Below are positions 925-56,944 of a stretch of 64,000 nucleotides of DNA, piece after piece. Position 1 is the stretch's first letter. Each line of letters begins with the position of its first letter. The DNA is taken from positions 59,086,001 to 59,150,000 of the forward strand of contig OY740787.1 of the NCBI GenBank assembly GCA_963514005.1, in the 5' to 3' direction. Under the pieces are notes generated by a model that saw nothing but the letters and a program-made list of their open reading frames with translations, did no database searches and was not told where the DNA came from. Source of the DNA: Raja brachyura. Its lineage: Eukaryota. The translations under genes and the position numbers were made by a program.

Positions 925-1362
925 ACAGAGTGAGGCCACATGCAAATTGGAGGAACAACACCTCATATTTTGTTTGGGCACCTTACAACCCAGCGGTATG
1001 AACGTTGATTTCTCTAATTTCAAGTAACCCCTGCATTCCCTCTTCCCTCCCAGATTAGCCGTCTGTCTTGCTAGTTTCACTGTTCACATCCCTGTTATCT
1101 TCTCATTATCTCCTCTTCCCCAGCCAACAATGGGCCATTAAGGGGTCCACCCATCCTTGGTCATCTATTGCCACTCCTGATTTGTTCTGGCCTTTTCCTA
1201 CCTCCAATTCCCCGCATCCATCTACTTTCGGTCTGAAGAGGAGTTCTGACCCGAAACATCACCTATTCTTTTTCTCCAGAGATGTTGCCTGATCCGCTGA
1301 ATTACTCCAGCACTTTGTGTCTGCCGTCGATATAAACCAGCATCTGCAGTTCCTTGCTATAC
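925..1362 (+). mobile_element. Penelope-like element 3' fragment: GIY-YIG C-terminus and terminal region with a hammerhead-like motif
   Basis: Frame reads SEATCKLEEQHLIFCLGTLQPSGMNVDFSNFK*, followed by CTGAAGA..CGAAAC at 1233-1260. Confidence 0.8.
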
Positions 1363-2229
1363 GTAGAACAGTACAGCACATGAATAGGCCCTCCGGCCCA
1401 TAATATCCAAGTTGAACATGAAGACATTAAGATAATACCATTGTCACATTTAAAAAAACAAAACATTTTATGTTAAAGGAGGTTCACTGTTTTGAAATCT
1501 AGCAAATAGATCCAGATGTTATCTTCAGTGCAAGAACCATGGGATTTCCAGGAGCCAGCTCACCACCGCTAAAATCTAGGTCACATTTGGAGTATTGTGT
1601 TCAGTTCTGGTCACCCCATTACAGGAATTATGTGGAAGCTTTGGAAAGGGTGCAGAGTAGGTTTACCAGAATTATGCCAGGCTTAGAGGGTATTAGCTAC
1701 AGGGAGAGCTTGGACAGACTTGGATTGTCTTCTATGGAACACTGGAGGTTGGGGGAAGACCTGATACAAGTATATAAAATTATGAGAGGCTAGTATCTGC
1801 CCTTTGATACCATGGGCTTTTAAATATGCTCCTAAAGCTTACCCCGCTAGTCCAGTTCAGTACAAACACTGACTCAAGCACTGGACCAACTAATCTTTAT
1901 TTTTAGAACAAACACAAATTCCCCTATACGATAGCTAACCACCACGGGTTTGATCCTTGTCTTTGCCTGGCCAAGCCCTTCAGCCTCATGCAAGCAGACA
2001 CTGCCCAAAAGGTCACGCAATCCCAAGCGCCCTTCCAGAAGATCAACACCGATCTAAATTGGGGCTACCTTTTATAGGTCCACGAACCTTGAGGGGCCGA
2101 ACTACATAGAGGTGGTTCCCCTTACAATTCAATCATACATATCAATTACATCTATACATTATTGACAGTTCCCCAACCCAATTACAGAGAGTCTTAAACA
2201 ATGTTGACTCATGGCTAATCCTTGAAATT

Positions 2230-2490
2230 CCACTTCAAGCAGGGTGCAAGGCCACCAAATTCAAGTGCGGTTTCATGCCACTTCAAGCAGGGTGCAAGGC
2301 CACCAAATTCAAGTGCAGTTTAATGCCATTTCAAGCAGGGTGCAAGGCCACCAAATTTAAATGCAGTATCATACCATTTCAAGCAGGGTGCAAGGCCACC
2401 AAATTTAAATGCAGTATCATTATATTTCATGCAGGGTGAAAGGTCACCAAATTCAAATGCAGTTTCATACCATTTTAAACAGGGTGTACC
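2230..2490. repeat. 48-bp minisatellite, about 5.5 copies
   Basis: Unit CCACTTCAAGCAGGGTGCAAGGCCACCAAATTCAAGTGCGGTTTCATG starts at 2230, 2278, 2326, 2374, about 2422 and 2470. Confidence 0.92.
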
Positions 2491-2496
2491 TCACCA

Positions 2497-3458
2497 CATA
2501 GAAACATAGAAATTATGTGCAGGAGTAGGCCATTCGGCCCTTCGAGCCTGCACCGCCATTCAATATGATCATGGCTGATCATCCAACTCAGTATCCCGTA
2601 CCTGCCTTCTCTCCATACCCTTAGCCACAAGGGTCACATCTAACTCCCTCTTAAATATAGCCAATGAACTGGCCTCAGCTACCCTCTGTGGCAGAGAGTT
2701 CCAGAGACCCACCACTCTCTGTGTGAAAAAAGTCCTTCTCATCTCGGTCCTAAAGGATTTCCCCCTTATCCTTAAGCTGTGACCCCTTGTCCTGGACCTC
2801 CCCAACATCGGGAACAATCTTCCTGCATCTAGCCTGTCCAACCCCTTAAGAATTTTGTAAGTTTCTATAAGATCCCCTCTCAATCTCCTAAATTCTAGAG
2901 AGTATAAACCGAGTCTATGCAGTCTTTGTTCATAAGACAGTCCTGACATCCTAGGAATCAGTCTGGTGAACCTTCTCTGCACTCCCTCTATGGCAATAAT
3001 GCCCTTCCTCAGATTTGGAGACCAGAACTGTACGTAATACTCCAGGTGTGGTCTCACCAAGACCCTATACAACTGAAGTAGAACCTCCCTGCTCCTATAC
3101 TCAAATCCTTTTGCTATGAAAGCTAACATACCATTCGCTTTCTTCACTGCCTGCTGCACCTACATGCCTACTTTCAATGACTGGTGTACCATGACACCCA
3201 GGTCGCGCTGTACCTCCCCATTTTCTAATCGGCCACCATTTAGGTAATAGTCTGTTTTCCTATTTTTGCCACCAAAGTGGATAACCTCACATTTATCCAC
3301 ATTATACTGCATCTGCCAAACATTTGCCCACTCACCCAGCCTATCCAAGTCACCTTGCAGTCTCCTAGCATCCTCCTCACAGCTAACACTGCCCCCCAGC
3401 TTAGTGTCATCCGCAAACATGGAGATATTGCCTTCAATTCCCTCATCCAGATCATTAA
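2497..3458 (-). mobile_element. 5'-truncated young CR1 LINE (RT motif FADDTKL to the 3' tail)
   Basis: ORFs 3160-3549 and 2569-3159 share a frame and are split by one TAG. Flanking direct repeat TCACCACAT at 2491-2499 and 3459-3467. Confidence 0.92.
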
Positions 3459-3887
3459 TCACCACATTAATCACCACACAAAACACCACATAAAACAACA
3501 CATAAAAACAACATATAAAAACTACATTAAAACCACATAAAAACCACACTCACAATTCAGTAGACATTCAGTGTGTTAACAGCTGGTTCACAGCTCAGAC
3601 AGAGAGTCGTGACCTCTCTCTCCCCATCTTGCAGAGACTGAGCCACGCCCACACTTCCGGGTTTTATAGTATCTACCCCTCCCACCAGAAGGGCTGTAGC
3701 CTTCATGGAGTGATTGACAGGGGAGCGAATCTCAACATTTTTTAAACACTAATAACTCTTTTATTTTTCATCAATGGGAAAAAACCTCTGCACCTGATGA
3801 GCAGAGGGGGGCTCTGAGTAAGATGGCCAAGGATCACAGCCATAAGTGTAGCGTTTTTTCTACAATCAATCTAGAGTGCAAACAGAG

Positions 3888-4390
3888 GGAGTACAGAGAA
3901 GGTTCATCAGACTGATTCCTGGGATGGCAGGACTTTCATATGAAGAAAAACTGGATAGACTCTGCTTGTACTCACTAGAATTTTGAAGATTGAGGGGGGA
4001 TCTTATAGAAACTTACAACATTCTTAAGGGATTGGAAAGGCTAGATGCAGGAAGATTGTTCCCGATGTTGGGGAAGTCCAGAACAAGGGGTCACAGTTTA
4101 AGGATAAGGGGGAAGTCTTTTAGGACCAAGATGAGAAAAACATTTTTCACACAGAGTGGTGAATCTCTGGAATTCTCTGCCACGGAAGATAGTTGAGGCC
4201 AGTTCATTGGCTATATTTAAGAGGGAGTTAGATGTGGCCCTTGTGGCTAAAGGGATCAGGGGGTATGGAGTGAACAGGTACAGGATACTGAGTTGGATGA
4301 TCAGCCATGATCATATTGAATGGCAATGCAGGCTCGAAGGGCCGAATGGCCTACTCCTGCACCTATTTTCTATGTTTCTATGTTTCTATG
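3888..4390 (+). mobile_element. CR1 LINE 3' fragment nested in the Helitron-like copy
   Basis: RGDLIETY..RTRGHSLRI..LWNSLP with a (TTTCTATG)n tail; host sequence GTGCAAACAG resumes as AACAGGAAATGG. Confidence 0.9.
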
Positions 4391-4427
4391 TAACAGGAAA
4401 TGGTCAAGTTTAGACTTTTAATTGTAA

Positions 4428-4695
4428 GCTTTTTCAAATCAACTACCACCACCACCACATTTGCTTAGCTTTTTCAAACCAACCACCACCACCACCACAT
4501 TTGCTTTGCTTTTCCGAACCACCCAACCACCACCACCAAATTTGCTTTGCTGTTGCAAACCATGTAACCACCACCACCACAGTTGCTTGGCTTTTTTGAA
4601 CCAACCAACCACCATCGCAATTGCTTTACTTTTTCCAACCAACCAACCGCCACCACATTTGCGTTGCTTTTTCCAACCAACCAACCGCCACCATG
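4428..4695. repeat. About 38-bp minisatellite (TTTTCCAACCAACCACCACCACCACATTTGCTTTGC), about 7 copies
   Basis: Direct reading; it explains ORFs 4439-4736. Confidence 0.85.
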
Positions 4696-5872: not shown

Positions 5873-5879
5873 ATAGTTA

Positions 5880-27465: not shown

Positions 27466-28774
27466 TTAGGGGCATCTTGGATGACAGGGACAAGCTGTGC
27501 CTTATGACTCTACCAATGAATCTGTGCTTGAAACCTGCTTGCAAGGTCAAGTAAAGGTAAGAGTTTACCCAATTCCAAATCAAGAAGTAAATACCAAATA
27601 AATATAAATTGCACAAGTGATCATCTTTATGTATTTCCCTTGAAACAAGACATGACTCACTAAAGTTTGCATTGTTTGCCTGTCTGTACAACAAAAGAAA
27701 ATGTCTGACCATCTGCAACATTCCAATATATACTCCCGCCGTTCATTTACCGGTGTCTGACGCATCTCAGTTGTGAATGTTGGTCATGTTAACGATAGTT
27801 ACATGATAGTTCAATGAGTAACATGCCTTGTTACCCACAGCCATCCGCTGACTTCACTACATAACATAGAGCATAGAACAGTACAACACAGGAACACACC
27901 ATCCGGCCCACAATATCTGTGCCGAACATGATGCCAAGACCAACTCTTAACTTTACTTTAGACATTAAACTTTCATGACAGAGTGTGGGAACAGGTCCTT
28001 CGGCCCTCCGAGTCCACACCGACCAGCAATCACCTCATGCACTAGCATTATCCATTAGGCTAGAGGGAATTTATTATTTTTACCTAAGCCAAGTGTGGGA
28101 GGAGATCGAGCACCCGGAATGAGAACGTGCAAACTCCGCACAGACAGCACACGGAGCCAGAATCAAACCCAGGTCTTTGTGCTGTAAGGCAGCGGCTCTT
28201 CCGCTGTGCCACTGTTCCACCTGCACATGATCCATATCACTCCATTCCCTGCATATCCATGTACCTTTCCAAAAGCCGCTTAAACGCCCCTATTGTATCT
28301 GCCAACACCACCACCCCGGCAGCACGTTCCAGGTACCCTCCACCCTCTGTAAGAAAACTGGGCCCGCACATTTTCTTTCAATTTTTCCCCTCGCACCTTA
28401 AAGCTACGTCCTCTAGTATTTGATATTTCAACCCCGCGACTTCATAATTTTATATACTTCTATCAGGTCTCCCCATCTTGGAGGAAGTTCCTGGTGGTAG
28501 GAATCCCTGAGATTGTCTACAATCACACAACTTCCAGCAGTGGCTTGAAGAGTTTGGAGTCTGAAGAAGGGCCCAAGTGTGGGAGGAAATCGAGGGAATG
28601 TGGAAGGTAATCGTCACCTGTTCATGTCCTCCAAAGATGTTGCCTGACCCATTGAGTTACTCCAGTACTTTGTGTCTTTTTTGTTTTAAACTGGCATCTG
28701 CTGTTCCTTGTAACAGCATGAAGACTTTGTTGCAGATGATCACACATGTTATGGACATTCAGTCACAGTATATG

Positions 28775-28996
28775 TTGAAAGGAACTGCAGATGCTGGTTT
28801 ACACCGCGCATAGACACAACATACTGGAGTAACTCAGCGGGTCAGGCAGCATCTCTGGGGAAAAGGAAAAGGCGACGTTTTGGGTTGAGACCCTTCTTCA
28901 GTCTGAAGATGGTTCACGACCTGAAATGTCATCTATTCCTTTTCTCCAGAGATGTTGCCTGACCCGCTGAGTTACTCCAGTATGTTGTGTCTATCT
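28775..28996. mobile_element. Palindromic Penelope-terminal element (inverted pair)
   Basis: Arms are reverse complements around TCTTCAGTCTGAAGA (about 28902). Confidence 0.75.
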
Positions 28997-30649
28997 ACAA
29001 TCACATTATCCCTTCTCATCAGGACAATTAAAGATGACAGAAGTCGGAGATTGCAATATTATGTGCTTACCGTCAGTTGAACTTGCCTCTGAGACGCCAT
29101 AACATTGGACGAACCTAATGCATTGTTGTCTCACTGTTATGCCAAATGGGATGAGGTCTTCAGCTCTCCCAACAGTGTGAATTACCTGATAAATACAGGT
29201 TTGGGCGATTTTGCACAGATCCTTCAATCTTCTCAAAAACTAAAACTCGTCATAATTTCACAGGCTGAGCAATCCAAGCGGGTGATTTTGGCCGGAGAGC
29301 TACCTGCATTGCAGATGCTACTCGCTAGTAGTTGGAAATGCTCTGGGTTAAGGTGTGGGAGTTCCCATCTGCTCCAGGGCTTCCACTTCCTTTCCTGCTT
29401 CAATGGCATGTCGCCGAATACTCTCTTGAGCTTCTACAGGTGTACGGTAGAGAGCATATTCACTGGTTGCATCACTGCCTGGTTTGGGAACGAAGGAGAT
29501 CACAGAGAGTGGTGGACACTGCCCACTCCATCACGGGTACTGATCTTCCCATCATCGAAGGGATCTACAATAGTCGCTGCTTCAAAACGGCAGCCAGCGT
29601 CGTCAGAGTTTGACAACCGGGAGATTGTGTCGGCCAAGGTGGACTGAGCGTAGGTGTCAGCAAAATGATCACCCAATCTGAGCTTGTTCCCGCCGATATA
29701 TTCGATATATCCTTCCTATTCACATGTCTAGGGCAGCATTACAATTGCCCTTGTAAACACTGATCGCTAATAAAAAATGATAATCTCCCAGTTGCCAAAC
29801 ATTTACTGCTTTACTAAATGTATGCCTCCGTTATCACCTCCTCCACAGCCAACAATGGACCATTGTGGGCTCCTTAGCAATCGGTGCCGGCTCCAATTAG
29901 TTATGTACTCTTTCATACACCTAGTTTCCCTCTGCCCTGACTCTCAGCCTGAAGATAAATGAAGCTATGTCCTCAGGTACATCCCTAGGGCCTGATGGTA
30001 TGCATCCCAAGAAGGAGGTGGCCCGAGAAACTGTGAATACATTGGTGATCATTTTCTCATGTTCTATAGACTCTGGGTCAGTTCATGTGGACTGGAGGGT
30101 AGCTGGATTGCTGCCTGACCTGCTGAGTTAGTTACTCCAGTACTTTGTGTCTTTGTAAAAAACAGCACCTGCAGTTCCTTGAATCGCCAAGATTATTTTG
30201 TGTGTGGGAATGAAAGTGAACACATTCAGATAAAACTCTTTGACACATGGGACCTCACCACTGAAAGAGCATGTTAAATTATTGCTGCTGCAAGTGGTGT
30301 GATTGGCTCCGTGCTCTAGACGTTAAGGATCAATATCTAGGGCAGCACAGTGGTGCAGCAGTAGATTAAACAATCTCGACATCTTCCTTTTCACTCGGCT
30401 TTGATAATTATTATATTGTCCCATGTTCCATCATCATTTTATCTTCATGGTACATATTGGATGGGACATCATGAGGAAGCTGTACAAGTTGTTGGTGAGT
30501 CCACACTTGGAGTACTGTGTGCAGTTCTGGTCACCCAGTTACAGGACAGAAATCATTGAGTTGGAGAGGGTGCCGAAGAGATTCACCAGGATGTTACCAG
30601 GGATTGAGTTATAGGGAGAGGTTGGATTGGCAGGGACTATTTTAGAAAT

Positions 30650-31080: not shown

Positions 31081-33399
31081 ATTAAAGTAGCATCCTGACC
31101 TGAACTGCATTTAACATTGTTCTCCGAAGATGCTGGCTGACCCACTGAGTTACTCCAGCAGTTTGTGACTTTTTGCCACATACAAATCCTTCCTGTGCCC
31201 GGTCTAAGAATGTTCCCATATGTCAGTGGAAGGTATGATATCAGAAATAGTTTTGTAATAAGGTATTAAAAGATTTCTTAAAATGGGCATGTGAATGATT
31301 GGAGACACAAGAAACTGCAGATGCTGGAATCTTGAGCATGCTATCCAGTCAGCGGAAAGACTATACCCGAGTACAATCGAACCGTTCACAGTGTACAGAT
31401 ACAGGATAATGGGTATAATGTGAAATCCGATGCTGGAATCCTGGGCAAAACATAAAGTGCTGGAGTAACTCAGCGGGTCAGGCAGCATCTGTGGAGGGGA
31501 ATGGACAGACAATGTTTTGGGTCTGAACATGAAAATGGTGCCTTTCCATTCCTTCCGCAGGTGCTGCCTGACCCGTTGAGTTCCTCCAGCACTTTAAGTT
31601 TTATCTCAACTTTGCCTGTTTTAGTGCCAGAAGAGAAGGCACCCATTGTCGGCATGCAAATCCCAACAAAGCATAATGATTGCAGATAGTGCAAGGGAGT
31701 GAATCTAATCGCCGTCTCAAAGAGGTACTTGGCATGGACTTGAAGTGAATGATGTTAATAAAGAAAGCACTTTTAAATGGCATAAATGCTACAGGAAGAA
31801 TAACAAGCTGTGATATCAGGACAGCAATGATGGTGAAATGAGCACACAAACGGCTGCAAATTGCTCTCTTATAGGCAGAGGCATACAAAGTCACACAATA
31901 GGCTGCAGATGTTAGCCAGTTAGTTGGTTTAGTTTTTGTCTCGTGAAAACAGTGAAATGTGTTTTGTTGAGCTATCCAGTCAGCGGATAGACTATACATG
32001 ATTACAATCGAGCCATCCACAGTGTACGGATAAAGGGAATAACATGAATAACCTTTAGTGCAAGATAAAGTCTAGTAAACCCCAATCAAAGATATTCCAA
32101 AATCTCCAATGAGGTAGATGGTAGCTCAGCGATAGTTCAATCACTTATGGCTGATAAGAAAACCGGGAGTCGGGGATATGGCAATACTCTACTGGGCCGA
32201 TTGTAAGGAACAATACTTCACTGTGTTAGCACTTCACACACATGACAATAAAAGGACCATTGAAGCATTCAACCATCCTAGTGAACAGAGTCGTGGGATT
32301 GAAAGTGTGCAAGAAGACATCATAGCTGAATGTGAGGAAACGAGTGATGCACTGACTGACATTTCAAATGGGATAATCGCTGAAGATCGCTGTCTCAAAA
32401 AGGCAGCCAGCATCATCAGAGACCCGCACCATCCTGGCTATGCTCTATCTTCATTCCAGCCATTGGGAAGAAGGGACAGAAGTCTAAAAGCTGTGACCAC
32501 CAGGTTCAAGGACAGCTTCTTCCCAACAACCATCAGGCTCTTTGAACACTGCACAGCACTAAGGGCAGGTAGAGCTGCTGCCTTACATCGCAGAGACCCG
32601 GGTTCAATCCTGACCTTGAGTGCTGTCTGTACGGAGTTTGCATGTTCTCCCTGCGACCGTACGGGTTTGTAGGTTAATTGGCCTCTGCAAATTGTGTGTG
32701 GAATGGATGAGAAAGTGAGATAACATAGAATTAGCGTGAACGGGTGATCAAGGGTTGGCATGGACTCAGTGGGCTGAAGGGCCTGTTTTCATGCCGTATC
32801 TCTGAAGTTAAACTGATATAAACACTAACCTTCGTAACTATGTCCTTTTATGACTGTGATTTTGGTTGCACTACAGAATTTGGTTTTACACTATTATTGT
32901 TACCCAGTGACACTGTTATTCATTTAATATATTATTGATTATTATATATTTATTTGCCTGTTATTGTATGAATGGGCCTGTAAAGCTGCAGCAAATAAGA
33001 ATTTCATTGTCGCTGGCACATGTGACAATTAAACACTCCTCTGGTTTCCTCCCACACTACAAAGACATACATGTTTGTAGGTTAATTGGCTTAGGTAAAA
33101 TTGTAAATTGTCCCTAGCGAGTAGGATAGCGTTAGTGTACGGGATGATCACTAGTCGGTGTGGACTCAGTGAACTGCTGGCCCCATTTCCACACTGTATC
33201 TCTAAAGTCTGCAATGGTTATGCATCTCACCGGATCAGGCAGCATCTCTGGAGTAGATGGATAGGTAACATTTCAGGTTGGGTCCTTTCCTCAGGCTGAT
33301 TGTAAAATTATACTCTTAATATATTAATCTATAATGGTATAACAAGGGGTCTCCGAGGGAAGTTGACAATTGCAAATGAAAAACAAATTGAGGGTTGGG

Positions 33400-34285
33400 T
33401 AATGCTGGGGAATGTTGTGGAGTGGAGTGATCTTGGAGTGCAGATAGATAGGGTGGCCAAGAAGGCTTTGGCCCTCATCAGTCATGGTGTTGCTTATAGT
33501 ATAGGAAGAAACTGCAGATGCTAGTTTAAACCAAAGATAGACACAAAAAGCTGGAGAAACTCGGCCAGACAGGCAGCATCTCAGGAGAGATGGAATGGAT
33601 GATGTTTGGTTCAAGAGGAAGTGTCTCGATCCAAAACGTCATCCATTCTTTCTCTCCTGCGATGCTGCCTGTCCCGCTGAGATACTCCAGTTTTTTGTGT
33701 CTATCTATGGTATTGCATATAGATGTTGGGAGATCATGTTGCAGTTATATAAAGCATTGATGAGGCACCATTTAGAGTATTGTATTCAGCTTTGGTCTCC
33801 ATGTTATAGGAAAGATGTTGTCAAGTTGCAAAATGATGCGGATAAGATTTACAAAGATGTTACCAGGACTTGAGGGTCTGAGCTGTAGGGAGAGATTGAA
33901 CAGGCTACGACGTTGTTCCTTGTAGTGCAGCAAGGTGAGGGGTGCTCTTATTGAGGTGTATATCATGAGAGGAATAGATAGGGTGAATGCTCAGAGTATT
34001 TTGCGGGACATGAGGACATAAGTTTAAGGTGGGGGATTTAATAGGAATTTGAGGGTTAACCTTTTTATACAAAGGGTGGTGGGAGAATGGAATGAGCTGC
34101 CCGACGAGGCAGTTGAGACAGGGTCTATCACAACATTTAAGAAATATTTGCACAGGTACATGGATGGGATAGGTTTAGAGGGATATGGGCCAAATGCAGG
34201 CAGGTAAGACTGGTGTAGATGGGACATGTTAGTCAGCATGGGCAAGTTGGACCAAAGGGCTTATTTCCACGCTGTATGACTCTAA
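33400..34285 (+). mobile_element. Degenerate CR1 fragment interrupted by a Penelope-terminal palindrome (about 33500-33707)
   Basis: HLEYCIQLWSP motif and CR1 3'UTR; inverted GATGCTGCC/GGCAGCATC arms inside. Confidence 0.7.
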
Positions 34286-35715
34286 CATCACCCAGTGAAA
34301 AATATCCAGAATTCAAGTGTAGACATACAGTGAACAATATCTAGAATACAAGTGTAGGGATGCAAGTATGTGGCTCTACAGTTTGAATAAACTAATGAAT
34401 AAGTTTATTGGCCAAGTATTCACATACAAGGAATTTGCCTTGGTGCTCCACCTGCAGGTAACAACATGACATGGTGACAGGTAGGAATGACACATAAAAC
34501 ATTAATAAAACATTATCAATTAAACATGTGAATTATATAAAATACGAGCAAAAGGAGGCTACAAGACTCTTGGTTATTGAGTAGAGCTCGTGGGGAAAAA
34601 GCAGTTTTTATGCCTAAGCCAAGCTGTTTTACGCCATTCATTGAAGTAGAGCTGGTATTGTGTTCTATATGAAGATCTGATGGGCTGTGATGTCCATTGA
34701 GCTATTCCTGAGAATTAGAACATAGAACAATACAGCACAGGAGCCGGCCCTTCAGCCCACAATGTTTGTGCCAAACAAGATGCCGTGTTAAACAAATCAC
34801 CTCTGCCTGCACGTGAACCATATTCTTCAATTTCCTACATATTCACGTGCTTATCCAAAAGCCTCTTAAATACCCCTACCCAAAAATACATGTAGTATTT
34901 CTATGAACAGTACTGGCAAACAAATATCATTCAGATTTGTAAAGATTTTTGGGAAGTGTTGCCACTCTTGGCAGCTCGATTTCTTCATCTGATGGGGGAT
35001 AGTCTCAGATGGAGTAAACGGTTTCAGTAAAAATGTTGCAGTTAATGGTTTTTCTATATATTTTTTTTTTCAATGGAATACATTCTCTGACCATTTGAAG
35101 AAACTTCCCGACCCAAAACGTCACCTGTCCATTCCCCTCCTAGATGCCTGACCCGCTGAGTTCCTCCAGCACTTTGTGTGTTCCTCAAGATTCCAGCATC
35201 TGCAATTTCTTGTGTCTCCCTTGATGAAATCCCCTGCTTCTGTCGACAAGCTCTCAACATAATCAACTTCGTTACCAGCGATCAAGTGCTGGAGTAACTC
35301 AGCGGGCCAGGCAGCATCTCTGGAGAACATGCATAGGTGGCGTTTTAGGTCGGGACCGATCTCCAGACTCCTTATGAGCCGAGTGTTCCTATTAGTGTTG
35401 AATTCACCTGCAGTTATTGGAGAATAGACGAAATCGCTGGTCTCGTTTTGCAGATCTCCCGATTCCGATATGGACACGCGATTCAAGCTCCCTGTTTATA
35501 CACCACCACGACAGCACACAAATAACAAGGAACTAATATGGATGTCACATATCAGAGCATTGTATGCATGTGAACTGGTTTTTACTCTTACAAAGATCTC
35601 AAAATGTTTAACTATGGTCTTAAGGATCTGTTAAAGGATCTGTTAAAATCTTAGATAGACACAAAAAGCCGGAGTAACTCAGCGGGTCAGGCAGCATCTC
35701 TGGAGAAAAGGAATA

Positions 35716-35749
35716 CGTAACGTTTCGGATCGAAATCCTTCATCAGACG
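35716..35749 (-). ncRNA. Minimal type-I hammerhead ribozyme-like motif, best-preserved copy
   Basis: Minus strand reads CGT-CTGATGA-A-GGAT(TTCG)ATCC-GAAA-CG-T-T-ACG: intact core, stem II with UUCG loop, palindromic AACGTT stem III and a 3-bp stem I. Activity is untested. Confidence 0.55.
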
Positions 35750-38700
35750 ACTCGCCCCGAAGCGCCATCCGTTCCTTCTCTCCAGAGATGCTTCCTGGCC
35801 CGCTGAGTTACTCCAGCACTTTGTGTCCATCTTCGGTTTAAACCGGCGTCTGTAGTTCCTTCCCACACATAAATTAAAACCATGGTCTGTTGGAACTGTC
35901 AGAAATTGGACGAAGCATTTTTTTTGTGAGGCATCTTATGTCAAACGATTCCTCTTTAACATATATACATATGCGCAAATATATATACGCGCAAATGTTA
36001 TTTTTGAGTTTAGTTTACATCCCCCCCCCCCCCCCCCCCCCCGGCGCAAAAAATCAAATTACCGACATTGAGTTCCACCGAACTGTTTCATCTAAAGGAA
36101 GGTCACCACCTGAAAGATCTCCTATACATGTTCCCCAAAGATGCTGCCTGACTCGCTCAGTTACTACTCCGGCACTTTGTGTCCCATCGACTTTATAGTA
36201 ATGTGGAGAGTATTTTTACATTGTATCCTAAGTTTTTTTATATATCAATAGTGTCTAATTTAAGTATGATTCGCTTGGTAGAGGGAACCAAAGGTCACAG
36301 AGGGTCAGCCATGAAGTGGCATGTCGAGTGGAATCCGCGATAAGCATAGAGTGGAACTGCAGATGCTGGAATCATGAGGAGAACACAAAGTGCTGGAGGA
36401 ACTCGGCGGGTCAGACAGCATCTGTGGAGGGAATGGACAGGTGCCCTTCTTCAGTGTCCTCAGATTTAGTCAAGGGGATGTATGCCATTGGGGAAAAAAA
36501 ACTATTGCAAGACCATTAATCACAACATTTTTACTGAAACAGTTTACTCCATCTGAAACAATTCTCCACACCAGAAATGAGCTGCCAAGTGTAGTAATCA
36601 AACCAGCGTTTCCCCAAAACAAAAAAGGCACAAAGTGCTGCTGTAACTCAGCAGATCTGGCAACATCTCTGGAGAACATGGACAGGTGATGTTTTGGGTC
36701 GGGGTCCTTTGTTGGAAGATTCGAAAAAAACCCCAAAGTATTTGAACGCTCAGTGAATAATTCCCCTTGACCAGGTTTCATTGCCAGGTTTATAGTAGAA
36801 ACGTAGAACTGCAGATGCTGGTTACATCTGAGGAAGGGTCCCGACCAGAGACCTCATCTATCATGTTCTCCAGAGATGCTGCCTACCCGCTGAGTTACTC
36901 CAGCACTTTGTGTCCCGTCGGCTTTATAGCAACTTGCACAGTATTTACACGTTACCTCCGAAGGATTGGGGTTTTGAACATGACTACTATTCGAAGCATA
37001 CACCTTCTGCGGATTGGATACATTTGGCTAAGGAAGCATTTCTCAACATCTAAGCTCATTATTTGTAAACGTGGTGCAGCAACATAACACGAAGCGCGTT
37101 AAAAGTTCATAAAGGCTCTTATTAGGTCAAGAGTAAAAGACAGCTTCTTCCCAGCTGTCGTCAGGCAACTGAACCATCCTATAAACAAAGACCTGTGATC
37201 TATCTCATTGGAGACCCTCGGATTATATTTAATCGAATTTTACTGGATTTGCACTAAATGTTATTCCCTTTATCCAGTATCTGTACACTGTGGCCGGTTT
37301 GATTGTAATCAAGTATAGTCTTTCCGACTGGATAGCACACGACAAAAAGTTTTTCATTGTACATTGGTACGCACGACAATAAACTAAACTACGCATGGAG
37401 ATAACTTGTGAAAACGTAAATAGTTGTCTGACATATCGCAGACACGCTGTATTTGCAGGTGGGTGCGTGGGGGGTGCTATGAGTATCGGAGGTACAAGAA
37501 ACTGCAGGTGCGGGTTCACAAAAAAGACACATAGCGCTGGAATAACTCAACGGGTCAGGCAGCATCTCTGGAGAACGTGAATAGGCGGCAAAGACGTGTA
37601 ACGTTACCTATCCATGTTCTCTAGAGATGCTGCTTAACCCGCTGAGTTGCTCCACCACTTGAGTCTCTCCGCGAGTATCTGACTCCACTTAAAGTTGTAT
37701 TAAGGGCTTTAATGAGGCCAGGAAAAATGCAATCCGTGTTAAATGAAGGTTTTATTTGAGTGTAGAAATATCAAGAAAAAGTTTGTGACTGAACTGTTAA
37801 AATTCTCAGAACACATCTTATCTTTCCCATTCTCCATTCAGTCATACTCAGTGAGTTTTTGAATGGTTATTATATTTTGTTCAATGTCGATACAAGGAAC
37901 TGCAGATGCCGGTTTAGAACAAAAGTGCAGGAGTAAATCAGCGGGTGAGACAGCATCTCTGACCCGCAGAGTTACTCCAGCATTTTTTTTTATTTTTTAT
38001 TTTTTAATTAAATATCAAACGTTGTATAGTTAGTAGTAGACATTTAGTATTTTTTGAATATTCAACATTTTAGAAATGCTACTATAGGGAAATCAGATTA
38101 AGTTTATTTTTTAAAGATTCCTGCTAAAAAAATCTGTAGGAAGGAACTAGATTATACCGAATATGGACACAAAATACCGGTGTAACTCAGCAGGTCAGGC
38201 AGCATCTCTGGCGAAAAGCGATAGATGGAACTGCAGATTCTGGTTGTACCTGCTAAAAATCTTAGTTAATTTGCACAATTATCGCAGGAGACTTTAGGCA
38301 CTCAATTTCTCTACTTGCACTGTGTTTGCTAACGGGATATTTATTAATTCAGCATGCATTATTCGAAAACAAATTAAAGATCATTTGACGTAAACGAGAA
38401 ATAATTAATTTAAATTCCAGTTATGAACAGAAAGCCTTGGTAAAATGCGAATATGATTGCTGTTAAGTAAATTGGATTTGTACCACGTTGAAAATTGCAA
38501 GAAACTAAGTAATAGGAACATAACAAATAAAAGATTTCTGATAATTATAGGATTTATTATCGATTTAAATACCGAACCGAGCAACGAAACGATTCAGACA
38601 AAATAATTAATATGTCGAATTAGCTGCCCCAGGGAGAAATATTAAAATGATTATAAAATAACTCAGATTACAGATTAACATGCCTGCATCCGCAACTAGA

Positions 38701-39999: not shown

Positions 40000-40205
40000 G
40001 GGGCTTCTGGTGATCTGGGTAAGATCCAGGGAGGAATTGGAGATCTGGAATGGCTATGGATCTAGTAATCTCTGGGATATAAGGGTTGGGGAGATCTGGA
40101 ATGATGTCGTGGAGAATTGGTAGAACTTGGAGGGTGGGGGGATCTGGAGAGCATGTGGGTCCTATCCGCCAGGCAGGGAAGGGGGTGGGGGTGGGGGAGG
40201 GGGCT

Positions 40206-41076
40206 TCAGGCGTGAGAGTAGAAGCCGTAGAAAGCCATCTCCTTGGCACAGTTCTTCTCGCAGTCTCGGGGGGGCAGCGCCTCGCTCTTGAGAGGGGCCG
40301 AGCTCTCGGGGGGAGCGGGGGCGGGCGGCTGGGCGTCAGTCGACATCCGCCTCCTCTTCACCTGCTCGTAGATGCCGGCGTCCGCCCCCGAGTCCATTGT
40401 CTTGATGGTCGACTGCGTCTCGATCCAAGAGGCGGCGTCGGGCAAATCCTTGCCTTTCGTGTCCTCGGCTCCGGCCGACAGGGCCGAGCGGTCGGCGCCG
40501 CCGGCTCCAGGAGCCGGACCCAGGCCCTCGGCTGCGGCCGCCGCCGCCGCTGCAGCCGCCGCCGCCGCCGCCTCCTCCAGATACGAGTTGGTGGAAGCTC
40601 CTCGGCCCCAGGGCAAGACGGAGCTGGCTTTGCAGGAGTATTGCGGGCTGCGCGCCCCCCAGCCCGACGGGTCGGGGTAGTAGCCCAGCGGGCGGTTGCT
40701 GGCTTGGAGGGGCAGCGCCTTCACCCCCACCCCGTAAGACAGCAGCGCGTTGCCGGCGAAGTCGGCGTCGTAAGCCGAGAAGTCGAGGCGGTTGTTGGCC
40801 GGGGTGACGAACCAGCGCTGGGGCGACGGGGCCGCCGGTTCATCGCCCGCTTGCTGCTGTGGAGACAGCAGCCCGTTGGTGTGTGGCACGCTGCGCTCTC
40901 CTCCCCCCGGCCCCGGGCCCCCGTGGTGGTGGAAGCGGGCTTTGGCGTAGTTGTTGACGAACTGTTCTTGCAGGAAGGACTGGGTGACCGCATAGCGGGT
41001 GCCCGGCACGATCTGCGAGCGGGGAGAGTCGCTGGGAGACGGGGTGAGCCGGTCCATCTCGCAGCCCGTGTAGATC
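40206..41076 (-). CDS. TBR1: TBR1 exon 6 ([14 protein letters not shown]...[10 protein letters not shown]), GC/CpG-rich
   Basis: Acceptor GCAG; 871 nt to TGA. TBR1 C-terminal motifs [19 protein letters not shown] and CEKNCAK. The six exons sum to 2049 nt in one frame. Confidence 0.96.
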
Positions 41077-41249
41077 CTGCACAAACAACGAGAGAAGGGG
41101 AGAGGGGCAGAGGGTTGAGGGGGAGAGGGGAAAACAAGAGTGGAAAATAGAGAGGGGAAGTGACAGGAGGGGGAGAGGGAAAGAGAAGAGGGCGAGGAAA
41201 GAGGGGGAGCGAGGAGAGAAAGATAAAGAGGGGAGAGGCCTATTAAAAA

Positions 41250-42448
41250 CTATATTCCAATTAAAAGCGTAAAACCGAGCAAAACGAATGCATTCTTAGT
41301 GGAGAGCAGCAAGTCTTACTTATTTCAAAACTAAAAACCTTACTCAAATAAAACAGTGCAAAAGAACGCGCACCACCAGACTCAGGATCAGCTTCTTCCC
41401 CGCTTCTGAATGGCCCTTCCATAAACTAGGGTACTGTCCGATTCACCTCTGCACCATTGGGTCTCTGGAACTGGTGCGCTACAATGCTGAGAACTACATT
41501 CTGTACTCTGTATCTCCCCCTTTGCTCTACCTATTGTACTTTAGTTTGAACTGATTGTCTAAGAAACATAGACCCTTAATATTTTCTTAGTGGAGAGCAG
41601 CGAGTATTATTTCAAATTAAAACATATACAGTTTAAACGGTGGGGAACAGCGAATCTTTCTCATTTCAAAAGTAAACATTAAAAAATAAAGCGTAAAAAA
41701 GGACAGCGTAAGCTAGTACTCAGTGTAGCGACGAGCAGCGAGTCTTTTTATATACACATTTCAAAATAAACCGCTCTAAATAAAACATATGTGATGTTAA
41801 AGAGCTGTTCAAAACTGCTAATCCATTCTTGGTGAAGAGCAGCGAGCAGTATTTCAAAATAAAGTATAAAGTGGAAAGAACCATAAAACCCGTTCCTCGC
41901 CATTAATAATATTTTAATTTTAAGAATAAATTTTATTCAAAAAAGGACCTACACAATGTAAAATAACCGCGCAGAACTATTTATATTTTTTGTCAAGAGG
42001 AGCAAGTCTTTTATTTTTCAAAATAAAAACTTCATTCAAAACTGCAAAATAACAGTAATACTTAATATATTCTTACTGGAGAGAAGAGAGTCGTCTTAAA
42101 TTTCAGAGACAAACCTCACATTCAATGTAAAAGAAACGTGCAGAACTCTTCAGACTCATTCCTTCCACTAAGAACACATTTCATTTTCAAAATAAAGCAG
42201 GTAACATAACCGCGCGTAACTCTTAGTATGTTCTTCATGGCGAGGAGCGAGTCTTCTAATATGTCAAAAATAACCTTTATTTAAAATAAAATAAGCAATG
42301 CGAAATAAAAACCATGCAAAGCCAAAAATCACCCCCGTCAACTAAGACCGTGTTATGAGTTTACACTGTACATTTGTTTTATTACGAATAAAGTTTACTT
42401 TTGAAAAAGAGACTCACTCCTCTCCACAAATAATATTTCAAAAATAAG

Positions 42449-43167: not shown

Positions 43168-43755
43168 TCAAACCGCTCCAATTTCTCAGGAACTTAAGGT
43201 GCAGACAACTTAAATTTGTTTCCCGAAAGGTTTTTTTTTTAAATATAGATTTGTGGAATACAGTGCGAAAGTCCGGGTAACAAGATGAAGAAGGGGACTT
43301 TGTTCCCTGGTGGCGTTTAATTCCACAACTCAAAGGATGACATTTTTTGTAAATGATCAGAAACCCGGCAGGTATGACTTCCTGATTTTAACATAACATT
43401 CCATGTACAGTCTGAAACGTGCAAAACTCTTGTGTAATTCGATGTACACAAGGAACTGCAGATCCTAGTTTACAAAAAAACGCGCGCAGAGTGCTGGAGT
43501 AGCTCAGCGGGTCTTCGGAGAACATGGACAAGTGACATTCTAACCGAAAAGTTGTCTATCCATGTTCTCCAGAGATGCTGCCTGACCCGCTGAGTTACTC
43601 TAGCACCTTGCGTCTACGTTTAATTCAAAGTTAGGCATTTTAATTATTAAAAGAACTCTAGCTTTTTAAAACGGTGGGAGCAGACCAAGGTGCGTCTACA
43701 ATTCCTATTTTGTTCCTCCCTCCCACCCCACATAAAGACAATTGTTTGGTTTTTA

Positions 43756-43974
<219 letters not shown>

Positions 43975-44175: not shown

Positions 44176-44699
<524 letters not shown>

Positions 44700-49460: not shown

Positions 49461-49750
49461 GGTAGTTTTGAGATGCAAAAATGTACACGAGTGCAAATAC
49501 CAAAAAACAAATTTGGACACTCATTTTGACTATATTTTTTAAAATGGGAAAAACAGAGCTGAAATCCATTTGTCCTGACAAATGGTTAAAAAACAAAGAC
49601 AGGTACTGCACGATTGTTCTCAGCTTTAGATGTAATGGCTGTGGTTTTAGGTCATCTTCAGCAGTCTCAATGATAGTGGGATTTGAGTAGAAACGGCCTC
49701 ATAATAAAACACAACAAAATGACTCAATACGTTTATAATATTACAGTTCA

Positions 49751-49936
<186 letters not shown>

Positions 49937-50656: not shown

Positions 50657-53598
50657 CAAGAGTCAAGAGTCCAGATAGAACAATGAAATTCTTACTTGCT
50701 GCAGCACAACAGAATATGTAAACATAGTACATAAATGAGATTAAAAAAAGCTCAGTGTGTATATCTACACATACACACAGACTCAAAAAATAAACAAATA
50801 TAGTGCAATAATAATAATTGTTGTAGTTCAGAGCCTATTTGTTTACGTGTTTAGTAGCCTGATGGCTGAAGGGAAGAAGCTGTTCCTGAACCTGGATGTT
50901 CCAGTTTTCAGGCTCCTGTAACTTCTTCCCGATGGCAGTGATGAAATGAGTGTGTGGCCAGGATGGTGCGGGTCTCAGATGATGTTAGCTGCCTTTTTGA
51001 GGCAGCGCCTCCGATAAATTCCTTCGATGGTGAGGAGGTCAAAGCCGGTGATGGACTGGGCAGTGGTCACAACGTTATGCAGTCATTTCCGCTCCTGGAC
51101 GTTCAAGTTGCCGAACCAGGTCACAATGCAACCAGTCAATATGCTCTCCACTGCACACCTGTAGAAGTTCAGGAGAATCCTCTTTGACATAACAAATCTC
51201 CGTAATCTTCTCAGGAAGTAAAAGCGCTGATGTGCTTTCTTTATAATCGCACCAGTGTGCTGGGTCCAGGAAAGATCTTCGGAAATGTGCACGCCCAGGA
51301 ATTTGAAGCTTTTGACTCTCCACCATCGTCCCATTGACTCTCCACCATCGTCCCATTGTGGGTCCTCTTCCTTCCTCTTCCAAAGTCCACAATCAGTTCC
51401 TTGGTTTTACTGATATTGAGAGCCAGGTTGGTGTGCTGGCACCATTTGGTCAATCGATCGATCTCACTTCCATACTCTGAATCATCACCATCTGTAATTC
51501 GTCCAACAACAGTGGTGGCATCGGCGAACTTGATGATGGAGTTCACTATATGACTGGCTACGCAGTCATGCGTATAGAGTGAGTAGAGCAGGGGGCTGAG
51601 CACGCAGTCTTGAGGTGCACCCATACAGATTGTTAATGAGGACGAAGTATTCGAACAGACTATGATCTGTGGATGAGGAAGTCGAGGACCCAATTGCAGA
51701 GGAGATGCACAGAGAGCCAGTTCCGTGAACTTGGTAACCAGCTTTTTTTTTGTATCAAAAAATAATTTATTTAAATTCCAACACGATTCAAAAACCAAAA
51801 AAAACAAAACCGTGGTGACATACCCACCACCATGTTACGAAATCATCAAACATCTATTTTACAAATATTCTAATAACTGAATCGGGCAAAGCCCTCTTCC
51901 ACCTGGCACCGTGACTCGTGGATGGCCAGCTTGGCCAGGCCTAGGAGCAACCCAACCAGGACATCTTCAGGCCTGCCTACTCATAGATCCCGTCACCAGT
52001 CCTTTGGTCACTAACAGCAGAGCCACTCCTTGTAGACCCTACGTGGAGTGGCGGTGCTCCTTGACCTCCGGACCCTGGCTACAAGGGACGCTCTATTGGT
52101 CCCTTGGTAACCAGCTTGTAGGGGATGATGGTGTTGAACGCCAAGCTGTCGTCTACAAACAACAGCCTGATGTAAGTGTTTTTATTGTCCAAGTGGTCCA
52201 GTGCAGAGTGGAGAGCCAGTGAAATTGCATCCTCAATTGACCAGTCGTGACGGTAGGTGAACTGTAGTTGGTCGAGGTTCTTGTCGAGGTAGGAATGATA
52301 TGCTCCATAACCAACCTCTCAAAGCACTTCATCACCACGGACGTTAGTACCATTGGTCGGTAGTCGTTGAGGCATGTCACTTTACTCTTCTTCGGCACCG
52401 GTATTATTGATGCCCTTTTAAAGCAGGTGGGAACCTCAGACCTCAATAGTGAGAGGTTGAAAATGTCCACAAAAACTCCAGCGAGTTGGTCTGCACAGGT
52501 TTTGAGAACTCAACCGGGTATACTATCAGGTCCAGGTGCTTTCTGAGGGTTCAACCCCCTGAAGGATATTCTGACATCAGCCTCTGTGACTACGACTGTA
52601 ATACCATCAGGGTGTATGGGGGCTCGGGAAGGCACATCAGTGTTCTCCCTATCAAAGCGTGCGTAGAATGCATTGAGCTCATCAGGGAGTGATGCTTCGC
52701 TGACAATTGAGCTGCCTCCTGATTTCGCCTTATAGGAGGTGATTGCATTCAAGCCCTGCCACAGTTGCCAAAGATCCGTCTCACCCTCCAGCTTAGAGCA
52801 GAAGTCCCTTTTGACCGTTTTGATGGCCTTGTCAAGGTCGTATCTGGACTTCTTATAGACCTCTGCATCACTAAACCTGAATGCCCGGGATCTGGTCTTC
52901 AGAAGAATGTGGATCTTCTGGTTCATCCAAGGCTTCTGGTTAGGAAAAACTCAGAAGGTTTTTGTTGGAACAGTCCTCCACACATTTCCTTATGAAGTCT
53001 GTAACGACTGTGGCGAATTCATTCAGGTCCGTTGAAGAGTCCATGAACACTGCCCAGTCTACTGATTCCAAGCAGTCCTGGAGTTGTTCCTCTGCCTCCC
53101 CAGACCAGCTCTGTGCAGTCCTCACCTCTGGGGGTGCGTTCTTCAGTTGCTGCCTGTATGCTGGAAGAAGCAGCACCGCTGAATGGTTGGATTTCCCGAA
53201 GTGAGGGCGAGGGATAGAGCGGTAGGCATCCTTGATGGTCGTATAGCAGTGGTCAAGGGTGTTTGATCCTCTGGTGCTGCAGGGGACATGTTGGTGGTAG
53301 TTTGGGAGTGATTTTTTCAGGTTGGCTTTGTTGAAGTCCCCGGCTATGGTGGTAAATGTCTCGGGGAAAGCTGTCTGGTGCTTGTTGACCACCGCGTGCA
53401 GCTCCTCCAATGCCAGGTGGATGGACGTCTGCCTGGCCTGGGATGTAGACCGCGTCATGATAATGGGTGAATTCCCTGGGTAGGTTGAAGGGACAGCACT
53501 TCACCGCCAGGTGCAGAGAGCAGGAATTAGAAACAACTGCCACGTCTGAGCACCACGAAGAGTTGACCATGAGGCAGACGCCCCCTCATCTCCCTTTC
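50657..53598 (-). mobile_element. Rex1/Babar-like LINE, about 2.9 kb and frameshifted, in the last PSMD14 intron
   Basis: APE motifs (IAGDFN, TLDHCY, GKSNH), RT motifs (NDYRP, GAPQDCVLSPLLYSLYTHD, KFADAT) and a (CTCTTGA) tail. Confidence 0.9.
51745..52102 (-). mobile_element. Poly(A)-tailed Tx1/L1-like insertion inside the Rex1/Babar LINE
   Basis: 15-bp TSD CTTGGTAACCAGCTT at 51730-51744 and 52103-52117; AATAAA plus A-run; peptide DVLVGLLLGLAKLAIHES. Confidence 0.82.
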
Positions 53599-55731
53599 CC
53601 AGATGTGTGCGTACACGTTATCCCACTTTCTCATCCACTCCATACACACTGGGTGCAATTTTCAGAGGGCCAATTAACCTATGAACCTGCATGCTTTTGG
53701 GATGTGGGTAGAAACCCACGAGGTCACAGGGAGAACGAGTAAACTCCACACAGACAGCACCTGTAGTCAGGATCGGACCCGGTTCTCTGGCACTGCATGG
53801 CTCTACCAGCTATGCTGCCCTCCTTTAATGAACTTCAACTTTTTTGAATTTTTAAGATGATCCAGCAGTTCTACAGTCATCATAACTGATACCAATTCTG
53901 TTATTCCAGTATTTAATTAACATATTTAAGTTCCCCAACCCTCATGTTAGAATTTGATCTTGAAACTCTTGACAACCCCAATTGATTGCAAATTAAAAAA
54001 TAAAGCAAAAAATTGCAAATAAACCAGAAAATGCTGGAATCACTCAGCAGGTCAGTTAGCTTCGATTGAAAGAGCAACGAGCGATATCAAAAATCCTTCA
54101 TCAATACCTAGACATTAGGATTAAAGATAGACACAAAATGCTAGAGTAACTCAGCGGGACAGGCAGCATCTCTGGAGAGCAGGAATCGGTGACATTTCGG
54201 GTCGAGACCCTTCTTCAGACCCTCCTTGAGTCTGAAGAAGGGTCTCGAACTGAAATGTCACCCATTCCTTCCCTCCCCTACTCTGGGTAAAAGACCCTGT
54301 GCATTCAGTCCATCAATTCCCCCCATGATTTTATACACCTCTATAACATCAACCCAGATTCCTGTGTGGAAATAAAGCGAGAAACAGAGAGCATTTCAGG
54401 TGAAAGACATGGTCAGAAATGGGAAATAAAGTAAATGGGTTACTTGGAGCTGTGGAGAGGGTGGCAAACAAATGAAGGACATCTGTAAAGAAATATATAT
54501 TCTGATGAAAGTTTGCATGGAGTTTGTATGATCTGCCTGTGACCACATGGGTTTTCTTCAGGTGCTCCGGTTTCCTCCCACACTCCAAAGATGTACACGT
54601 TTGTAGGTTAATTGGCTTCGGTAAAGAATTGTAAATTGTAAATTGTCCCTAGTGTGTAGGATAGTGCTAGTGTACGGGGTGATTGCTGGTCGATGCGGAC
54701 TTGGTGGGCCTAATGGCCTGTGTCTGTGCTGATGAGTACTTTTGTAACTTTGCCAGCACCTTTGTGGCGACTCTTTTGTGTACTTTGTATGCAAAAACAA
54801 AGAATTTCACTGCACCTAGCTAGGTACAAATGACAAAATATCATCATCATCAAGTCAAAGTTAATAGCAATCTCAGAGTCTCCTCCCCTACAAGCTAAAC
54901 ACAGGTACTCTTCAAAGTAATCATCCAATTACTTCTCTTATGTAGTGAAGGTCAAGTTAGCAATGAATGCAGTACAGTACACAAGTTTAGAGATACAGCA
55001 TGGAAACAGGCCCTTCGGCCCACTGACTCCATGCCGACTATCGATCAACCGTTCACACTGGTTCTATATTGTCCCACATTCTCACCCACTCCGTACAAAC
55101 TAGGGTCAATTTTAAAGCGGCCAATTAACCAATAGAACTACTCGTCTTTGAAGTCATTCCTCAAATGTTACTCAGTATTACATTTGTCTTATATGTGGAA
55201 ATGTACAAAGAGAATCGATTGAAAGAATGAATCAGGTGACAATTGATTAGTTAATCTTATGCCAGCCTTCATGCAAATAATGTTTAAGAAATAAAATAAT
55301 ACCCAACATATGGAATAAAAACAAAACATGTTGGGAACATTCAGCAAGTCAAGTAGCTTCCGCAAAGGAAGAACACAAAGTGCTGGAGTAACTCAGCGGG
55401 TCAGGCAACATCTCTGAAGAACATCGCTAGGTGACGTTTCTGGTCAGGACCTTTCCTCAGAGTGAGTTAACGTTTCAGTTCAATCATCTTTCATTTCAAT
55501 AACGACGAAATAATTGATTCCTATAGTAATGGAGATGCAAATTGTAGAAGGATCTTCAAATGAAGCCCCTTTCATAGAACAGGAACAAAAAAGGGACGAT
55601 CACTTTGATGTTGGTACTACTGGCATCCTGACAATCAGGATAAACTTGAGCAGCAGACATGTAGACATATTAGAAAGACACAAGAGTAATAGTACCAGAG
55701 GAGGACGGGATTTTGATTTGCTCAATATTAA

Positions 55732-56040
55732 CGGCAGCACGATGGTGCAGCAGTAGAGTTGCTGCCTTACAGTACCAGAGACCCGGGTTTCATTCTGACT
55801 ACAGGTGTGTATCTGTACGGAGTATGTACATTCTGCTCAATCCTAAGTGGGTTTTCTCCCGAATCTCCAGTTTCCCCCCCACACTCCAAAGACATAAAAG
55901 TTCGTAGGCTAATTGGCTTGGTATAATTGTAAATTGTCCTTAGTTTGTGCAGGATAGTGTTAGTGTGCGAGGATCGCGGGTTGGCGAGGATTCGGTGGGC
56001 CGAAGTACCTGTTTCCACACTGTATCTCTAAACTAAACTA
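55732..56040 (+). mobile_element. HE1/V-SINE-like SINE
   Basis: tRNA-like head, V-like core and (AAACT)n tail. Confidence 0.85.
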
Positions 56041-56944
56041 GGACTGTTTTGAATGTGAAAGAGGGTGCATCCTGGAGAAAGCTTTGATCATGTATGTAGA
56101 TATTCCGACTGGAAAAAAGGGCAGTACTGGACCTAATCTTACAGAAGATAGTCATAAAATGCTGGAGTAACTCAGCAGGTAAGACAGCGTCTCTGGAGGA
56201 AAAGGATGAGTGGCGTTACGGGTCAGAACCCTTCTTCGGACTCTTAGGGAATGTAGCTGGGTCAGAGACTGGAGTGCCAGTGGGAGGACACTTCGTAGAT
56301 AGTGACCATAACTCCAAGTCTGAAGAAGGGTCTCGACCCGAAACATCACCCATTCCTTCTCTCCAGAAATGCTGCCTGTCCCGTTGAGTTACTCCAGCAT
56401 TTTGCGTCTATCCAAGTTTCAAGGTAGTTACAGAAAATAAAAATGATGGACGTTGAAATTCAGGTTCTGAACGTGGCCTGAATTCAATAGCATAAGAGAA
56501 AATCTGGCAAAAGGAGATTGGGAGCAACTACTTGAAGGTTGGTCTACAGTAAGTGGGAAGCATTTACATGTGAAATTGTAAAAAATCAAAGCCAATATGT
56601 TCCCATTAAAAACATGGCAGCAAATAAAAAGAAATATCTGAGGGCCAGGGAACCTTGGATGTTAAGGAATAAGGAGGGCTGTATAAAAAATAGCAACCAT
56701 ATGACAGAAACAGAAAATCCCTTCAGAAGTAGAGATAGTGTGGGGAGGTTCAAATCTCATTATACTGGACAGCAAGCCAAAAAAGATTTGACACTTATAG
56801 TAATATAAGTGATGGTTGGAAGCATTCCTGGCAGAAGGTTCTTAGTTCAAATCCCAACCAAAAACCTGAGAACAAAAGTCTAGACTAATGCTCAAATGAA
56901 AGGGGAGTATTGCACTTGTAGGATTGAGGCCACTTCTACTTAGA

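Follow-up and report, generated by a model that had tools for sequence, protein, structure and literature searches.

Motif copies and host exons in the window

The window analysed here, a stretch of 64,000 nucleotides on contig OY740787.1 of Raja brachyura (G000:C7:59086001-59150000; genome of 2.7 Gb), carries exons of the host gene PSMD14 on its minus strand (PDB match, E value 1e-21) and many dispersed copies of a short repeat with the core of a hammerhead ribozyme. This repeat is the end of the pseudo-long terminal repeat (pLTR) of an autonomous, recently active Penelope-like element (PLE) that encodes an endonuclease (EN+). The repeats of the window appear to be of a kind seen in cartilaginous fishes. 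An earlier note, made from the letters of the window, had listed the motif at 13 sites, tied it to Penelope-like termini and proposed a high-copy, ribozyme-bearing non-autonomous family. A terminus profile was built from 81 termini anchored to open reading frames (ORFs) and run on the window and on 40 evenly chosen 10-kb stretches, our unbiased sample. It detected 44 terminus fragments in the window and 148 in the sample, with none in the reversed-sequence controls. All 13 sites fall inside profile matches, and eight of the 44 fragments lie between identified PSMD14 exons, in agreement with the proposed placement of some copies in introns of this gene. The two halves of the motif occur together in 17 window matches (3.1 expected from shuffling), while a further count gave nine against zero. 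The very high copy number that had been suspected proved correct: the intact-core pattern has 73,145 exact matches genome-wide, and extrapolation by hand yields a total of about 1 million terminus fragments (roughly 0.7-1.3 million).

That most cores are decayed had also been rightly recognized. The 12 catalytic letters are retained in ten of the 23 window fragments that span the core, and a single one of these (35640-35748) has kept stem II and the CG palindrome as well. An Rfam scan of the window returned no hammerhead match at E ≤ 5; its below-threshold microRNA (miRNA) matches were dismissed, as they are head-to-head pairs or simple repeats. Remnants of a GIY-YIG C-terminus are present where they had been reported, at 926-1021 (plus) and 23970-23800 (minus), and a third was found at 19684-19486 (minus). 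The peptide KLEEQHLIF..LG.LQP.GMN, assigned to both of the former, is exact at 926 and has diverged in the 23.9-kb copy.

The autonomous Penelope-like element

A 106-residue endonuclease piece (Pfam GIY-YIG) gave 125,544 first-look candidates genome-wide, and a reverse transcriptase (RT) query led to a young subfamily with five loci that hold an open frame of 1203 codons, four of them 98.4-99.8% identical. The protein P0002 (1191 aa) unites in a single ORF an RT with DKG and YIDD, a CX4CX2C linker and a CCHH GIY-YIG domain. Its Pfam matches to RVT_1 and GIY-YIG lie below the curated cut-offs and the GIY-YIG match of L049 lies above; 644 relatives were retrieved at E ≤ 1e-20. The 28-nt core of the motif is identical in 20 of 20 young loci and stands at both ends, as a pLTR-ORF-pLTR partial tandem, in L101, L102, L104, L105 and L116. 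The suspected link to Penelope ORFs is thereby confirmed, with the identical core in both pLTRs of intact elements encoding RT and GIY-YIG. Exact matches to the young terminus number 70,757. Every hallmark of an EN+ PLE was found: an ORF with RT and C-terminal CCHH GIY-YIG, pLTRs, a tail and an inverted partner. By the domain layout of Neptune and Nematis elements it appears to be of the Neptune type, although a CX2-5CxxC linker is common to both groups.

Several other features of the element deserve mention. Residues ~170-460 of P0002 (L102:3607-7182) form a long Pro/His/Ala-rich stretch that lengthens the ORF to 1191 aa. An upstream ORF of 41 codons (L102:3494-3619) begins 50 nt after the first core letter (C3) and overlaps the start of the main ORF out of frame; it is preceded by a pyrimidine tract and AG, and the main ATG lies within a donor-like word. 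It could act as a brake on translation or indicate a small exon. An array on C890 (L351, L352) was considered as a master locus and rejected, since it is a host tandem repeat carrying truncated copies; this repeat (G000:C890) has a 4.27-kb unit with two truncated element copies each.

Structure of the short copies

Short copies, most of them 95-130 bp in length, account for 132 of the 148 unbiased matches and 41 of the 44 in the window, bearing in mind that old copies whose untranslated regions (UTRs) are absent from our UTR library may count as short. An inverted partner accompanies 70 of the 148 and 27 of the 44 matches. In long and short copies alike the 3' ends are bimodal (PLE tail): counted from C3, they lie near +93 and +128, two end points about 35 nt apart. 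Ninety-three distinct young copies, all in C1:0.17-2.7 Mb, were mapped; they come from the first 100 listed matches to a pattern downstream of the core. Target-site duplications of at least 8 bp flank 20 of 46 solo short young copies (1.6% of shuffled pairs).

The 5' edge is sharply defined. Forty-six of 65 short young copies begin at -7 to +2 of C3, with the mode at -3, and none of the 93 young copies starts between -70 and -8. Genome-wide, the exact core is preceded by CAGT in 24,626 cases, by DAGT in 6,473, by GGT in 5,397 and by YGT in 4,312; the element's own upstream letters are thus missing in 16,182 of 40,808 exact GT+core copies, and in 40% the break falls no more than 4 nt from C3. 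In 90 inspected copies the sequence upstream of the edge belongs for the most part to target DNA or to an inverted copy, and many head-to-head junctions fall exactly within the near-palindrome CAGTCTG. The short copies share the autonomous element's main variants and lack its upstream TATA-like word. No tandem arrays of the motif, the head-to-tail arrangement typical of retrozymes, were found within the window.

The 5' edge as a candidate transcript start

The edge reads CAGT and resembles an initiator (Inr; consensus YYANWYY), with its A at -3. TATA[TA] begins 29 nt upstream of this A in 55 of 125 UTRs, while control windows gave 0-2%. Directly before the edge, G is found in 48 of 100 listed copies, where 28% would be expected (hand count; p 3e-5), as copying of a cap would produce. 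A combination of TATA and Inr has been proposed for rotifer pLTRs (PMC3846280), an internal promoter is described for the D. virilis Penelope element (PMC2377424), and for an anole element the account in PMC11167929 is of reverse transcription that starts at two tail-defining internal sites on an uncut RNA template. The fixed edge, the TATA- and Inr-like words and the anole precedent together suggest run-off cDNA synthesis to the start of the mRNA.

Two further ideas about this region gained no firm support. A match to a downstream promoter element was weak, off-position and judged by eye. An intron, prompted by a pyrimidine tract with CAG before the core and donor-like sites near the stop and start of the ORF, was not supported: no GT-AG joint occurs among the 15 joints listed out of 251 in assembled contigs, and splicing would leave the stem I letters unchanged.

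Competence of the hammerhead motif

The description of the motif as a minimal type-I hammerhead holds for the core, the extra base, the G10.1-C11.1 pair and the palindromic ACGU, and fails for stem I, which is too short. In 20 of 20 young loci both boxes (CUGANGA and GAAANNUH), the extra base, G10.1-C11.1 and the palindromic positions 15.2-16.2 are present. The descriptor given in PMC4209133 for minimal hammerhead ribozymes (min-HHR) requires a stem I of at least 3 bp and a stem II of 3-7 bp with a loop of 3-10 nt. Stem II, with 4 bp and a tetraloop, complies and shows only one-sided (wobble) changes. Stem I comprises 2 bp in all 26 young-element motifs, below the minimum of three, position 2.3-1.3 being mostly A.C; it reaches at least 3 bp in two of seven core matches in the window and in one of 20 in the unbiased sample. 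Two-sided changes, which would point to covariation in the stems, are absent among seven subfamilies, whose divergence is shallow. A paired stem II change in 35640-35748 was rejected as compensation, because the variant occurs 94 times against 73,145 genome-wide, about as often as by chance.

Among the seven subfamilies none of 15 core positions varies, against 18 of 62 downstream (p 0.016), with the caveat that clusters share ancestry and that downstream stems are invariant too; within the motif, changes are confined to loop II, to H17, to one unpaired site and to two sites where wobble pairing is preserved. Individual copies decay neutrally: non-CpG core letters diverge by 5.1% and downstream letters by 6.4%, CpG core letters by 23.7%, and in dead copies the loss of core letters proceeds at a roughly neutral pace. 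Folding gave -4.2 kcal/mol for the forced hammerhead and -7.2 kcal/mol for the best structure. A predicted fold of the leader (L102:3441-3578) has the purine-rich start of the core base-paired to the tail, closing a long stem that lies between both 3' end points; this modelled pairing, for which no covariation support was found, could explain part of the core conservation.

Genomic traces of cleavage show no excess. Starts at the cleavage site (148) do not exceed those at a similarly filtered control site (149; other controls, 96 and 20), only one of the 93 mapped young copies starts there, and insertions at this site (17) show no excess over the control (12). Four young copies (G000:C3:975308, C18:3252208, C18:5744654 and C1334:453) carry an AAA insertion exactly at the scissile bond and a 61-nt triple repeat (L342-L344) begins at this bond, too few cases to exceed the controls. 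Flanking DNA was considered as a source of stem I and rejected: 25 of 30 copies preceded by GGT reach at least 4 bp, but they had been selected for GGT, and microhomology with the element's GGGTC, along with purine-rich junctions, largely accounts for these letters. Because stem I has 2 bp, two-sided covariation is lacking and the core decays neutrally, ribozyme activity of the motif appears doubtful. The core, kept constant in active lineages, probably cuts weakly, only with the help of a protein, or not at all.

Origin of the short copies

We consider it fairly probable that most short copies are run-off cDNAs made by the element's enzyme on uncut mRNA. Transcription would start at the A of CAGT, so that the hammerhead motif would constitute the first ~31 nt of the mRNA and only three bases would be left for stem I. 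Reverse transcription would begin inside the RNA, at either of the two tail sites, for which the anole element provides a precedent in vitro. In the 5' pLTR, the enzyme would run ~95 or ~130 nt to the end of the RNA and the product would then be inserted, the cDNA sometimes folding back to give the hairpin-like head-to-head pairs; from the 3' pLTR, it would yield the longer, ORF-bearing, 5'-truncated copies. The resulting stubs would be devoid of the upstream TATA-like word and would decay neutrally. On this evidence the template of the stubs does not seem to be cut RNA. We advance more tentatively, as a possibility short of an even chance, that the motif with its 2-bp stem I is the start of a capped PLE mRNA at a TATA-initiator promoter and that the ~1 million stubs are strong-stop-like cDNAs. 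If so, PLE reverse transcription has left in them a fossil record resolved to the nucleotide. This short cDNA could, by template-jumping instead of inserting, rebuild pLTRs, and the motif may be retained less as a catalyst than as a promoter or as a leader that binds the RT.

Several observations weigh against this explanation. The TATA-bearing UTRs come mostly from one or two related subfamilies and are not independent, and the word is absent from 64 of the 125 UTRs. The cap signal is weak, A being raised too (10 A and 8 G in 18 copies without inverted partner). No RNA 5' end was seen in the assembled contigs consulted, so that its position is deduced from genomic copies, and the mapped ones all stem from one 2.5-Mb stretch of one contig. 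Moreover, a particular 3'-end variant is over-represented among short copies (42 short to two long, against 134 to 56, in a pool that is biased), which a lineage made up of short copies only would lead one to expect.

Such a lineage, SINE- or retrozyme-like, whose short units are transcribed by themselves, re-amplified by the PLE enzyme and processed by the hammerhead, is in our view unlikely. It would account for the dominance of short copies in the unbiased sample, their fixed 5' end and own duplications and the short-enriched variant; a stub could keep an internal promoter like that described for D. virilis Penelope (PMC2377424), and the preprint bioRxiv 10.64898/2026.07.22.740005 describes PLE-derived retrozymes in vertebrates. 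It is contradicted by the absence of motif arrays in the window, the lack of excess starts at the cleavage site, the main variants held in common with long copies, and the target DNA or inverted copy found upstream of the edge. The shared variants, the missing TATA word, the absence of arrays and of a cleavage-site excess speak against the separate ribozyme-driven family of the earlier note: since most copies start at one fixed point, likely the RNA start, they rather look like by-products of uncut RNA. Ordinary 5' truncation, with reverse transcription from the 3' pLTR stalling or folding back at CAGTCTG and the edge as a structural hot spot, is equally improbable. Many head-to-head junctions do lie exactly in the near-palindrome, self-priming is a proposal already made for palindromes of this kind (PMC3846280) and PLE copies are generally 5'-truncated (PMC8557442). 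Yet solo copies with duplications share the same start, the predicted structures have the edge on their far side, breaks are missing from the 63 nt that follow upstream and the TATA-Inr-like spacing is fixed. Least probable is an efficient dimer ribozyme with cleavage products as the main intermediates. The invariant core in seven of seven subfamilies with changes at tolerated positions only, the weak cleavage reported for other minimal hammerhead dimers (PMC4209133) and the few AAA insertions and the triple repeat at the scissile bond agree with it; the 2-bp stem I throughout the young elements, the predicted fold, which disfavours the hammerhead, and starts and insertions at control level at the cut site do not.

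Comparison with known elements

The connection between hammerheads and Penelope elements was already known. The min-HHRs described for metazoan PLE pLTRs by Cervera and De la Pena (2014, PMC4209133) share with our motif CUGANGA, the extra base, G10.1-C11.1, GAAA-CG-UH, the palindromic 15.2/16.2 positions, occurrence in both pLTRs and a mostly dispersed, single arrangement. They differ in stem I, for which only the D. virilis variant described there has 2 bp, and in abundance, with ~4,000-9,000 copies in coelacanth and Xenopus against our intact-core count. In the skate, furthermore, the motif appears to form the first bases of the RNA. The published descriptor, owing to the 2-bp stem I, would overlook almost every copy of this very abundant repeat. 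The EN+ Neptune and Nematis elements treated by Craig et al. (2021, PMC8557442) agree with ours in the RT DKG, the linker and the CCHH GIY-YIG, in partial tandems, in an inverted 5'-truncated partner and in a 30-40 bp tail on one end. Most of the relatives listed by our protein search measure 700-950 aa, whereas the ORF here has a long Pro/His-rich N-terminal part, and most insertions here measure 95-130 bp and begin at a fixed 5' edge.

PAc, the Poseidon element of Anolis (Frangieh et al. 2024, PMC11167929), belongs to another clade, and our element is known from sequence alone. The two are alike in a pair of internal, tail-defining RT start sites and, by our reading, in the uncut RNA template; the hammerhead of PAc is reported there to be dispensable for insertion in vitro. 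The ORF of PAc starts inside the hammerhead, ours ~135 nt downstream of the cut site. Non-LTR retrozymes (PMC7229834; bioRxiv 10.64898/2026.07.22.740005) are likewise non-coding, hammerhead-bearing and related to PLE pLTRs, but they are described as head-to-tail tandems processed to circles, while the copies here are single or head-to-head. The literature searched, with Repbase and most subscription papers outside it, contained no paper on this PLE family or on run-off stubs. The family offers a test bed for what PLE hammerheads do and for how pLTRs and head-to-head insertions arise, as a young intact element and ~70,000 near-identical termini reveal precisely where the template starts, where the RT starts and how the junctions are built, and suggest that uncut RNA serves for insertion.

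Features of the window

Table 1 Element copies and host exons in the window (positions relative to its first letter)
Positions	Strand	Feature	Remark
926..1365	+	5'-truncated PLE copy	GIY-YIG end, pyrimidine-rich UTR, motif 1233, terminus and tail
13534..13736		Head-to-head pair	minus arm 13586-13534; plus arm 13607-13736, tailed
15686..15758	+	Terminus fragment	core absent
18769..18867	-	Terminus	pyrimidine-rich upstream; possibly one insertion with EN remnant 19486-19684
19486..19684	-	GIY-YIG remnant of PLE ORF	
23087..23208	+	Solo short copy	tail, 10-bp target-site duplication
23477..23970	-	5'-truncated PLE copy	GIY-YIG end, UTR, motif 23595, tail
24418..24528	+	Short copy	core deletion
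24969..25018	-	Terminus fragment	
25894..26059	-	Short copy with tail	inverted stub upstream
28609..28719	+	Terminus and tail	5' core piece detached at 28561
28768..29004		Head-to-head pair	fused at CAGTCTG near-palindrome; tail on minus arm only
30108..30189	+	Terminus fragment and tail	UTR fragment 29821-29955 upstream
31120..31176	+	Terminus fragment	
31424..31601		Head-to-head pair	
33222..33303	-	Solo short copy	
33496..33714		Head-to-head pair	one arm tailed; source of below-threshold Rfam miRNA hairpin matches
35094..35214	+	Solo short copy	
35282..35369	-	Solo short copy	
35640..35873		Head-to-head pair	core, stem II and palindrome all intact in minus arm, alone among window copies
36091..36215	+	Decayed copy	
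36346..36454	-	Decayed copy and tail	
36617..36934		Two copies	36709-36617 minus; 36827-36934 plus with inverted tail stub
37493..37673		Head-to-head pair	
37888..37986		Head-to-head pair	3' fragments
38134..38226	-	Terminus fragment and tail	
43448..43628		Head-to-head pair	
49751..49849	-	PSMD14 last coding exon	host
54025..54276		Fragment and head-to-head pair	54220-54115 minus; 54229-54276 plus, truncated by another repeat; last PSMD14 intron
55368..55467	-	Solo short copy	last PSMD14 intron
56136..56423		Head-to-head pair	~75-bp spacer; last PSMD14 intron
58618..58680	-	PSMD14 exon	host
58804..58929	-	PSMD14 exon	host; PDB match
59823..60009		Head-to-head pair	PSMD14 intron
60892..60966	-	PSMD14 exon	host
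61646..61761		Minus copy	inverted tail stub, 8-bp duplication; upstream of last exon identified

The pentapeptide DPKRH, a translation of the motif at 13621, 33628 and 35110, also opens the last PSMD14 exon (49849); the DNA of this exon resembles the motif over the DPKRH codons only, and the likeness is probably a coincidence. Tandem repeats occupy 2230-2486 (48 bp, 5.4 units) and 17816-18186 (191 bp, 1.9 units). The region 40001-42000 is GC-rich (54%), with GCC repeats at 40531-40572, and possibly represents a gene start with a CpG island. A stub of the type GAAACGTTAAC at 55470-55500 (minus), upstream of the 55460 copy, possibly derives from an older hammerhead-bearing PLE family.

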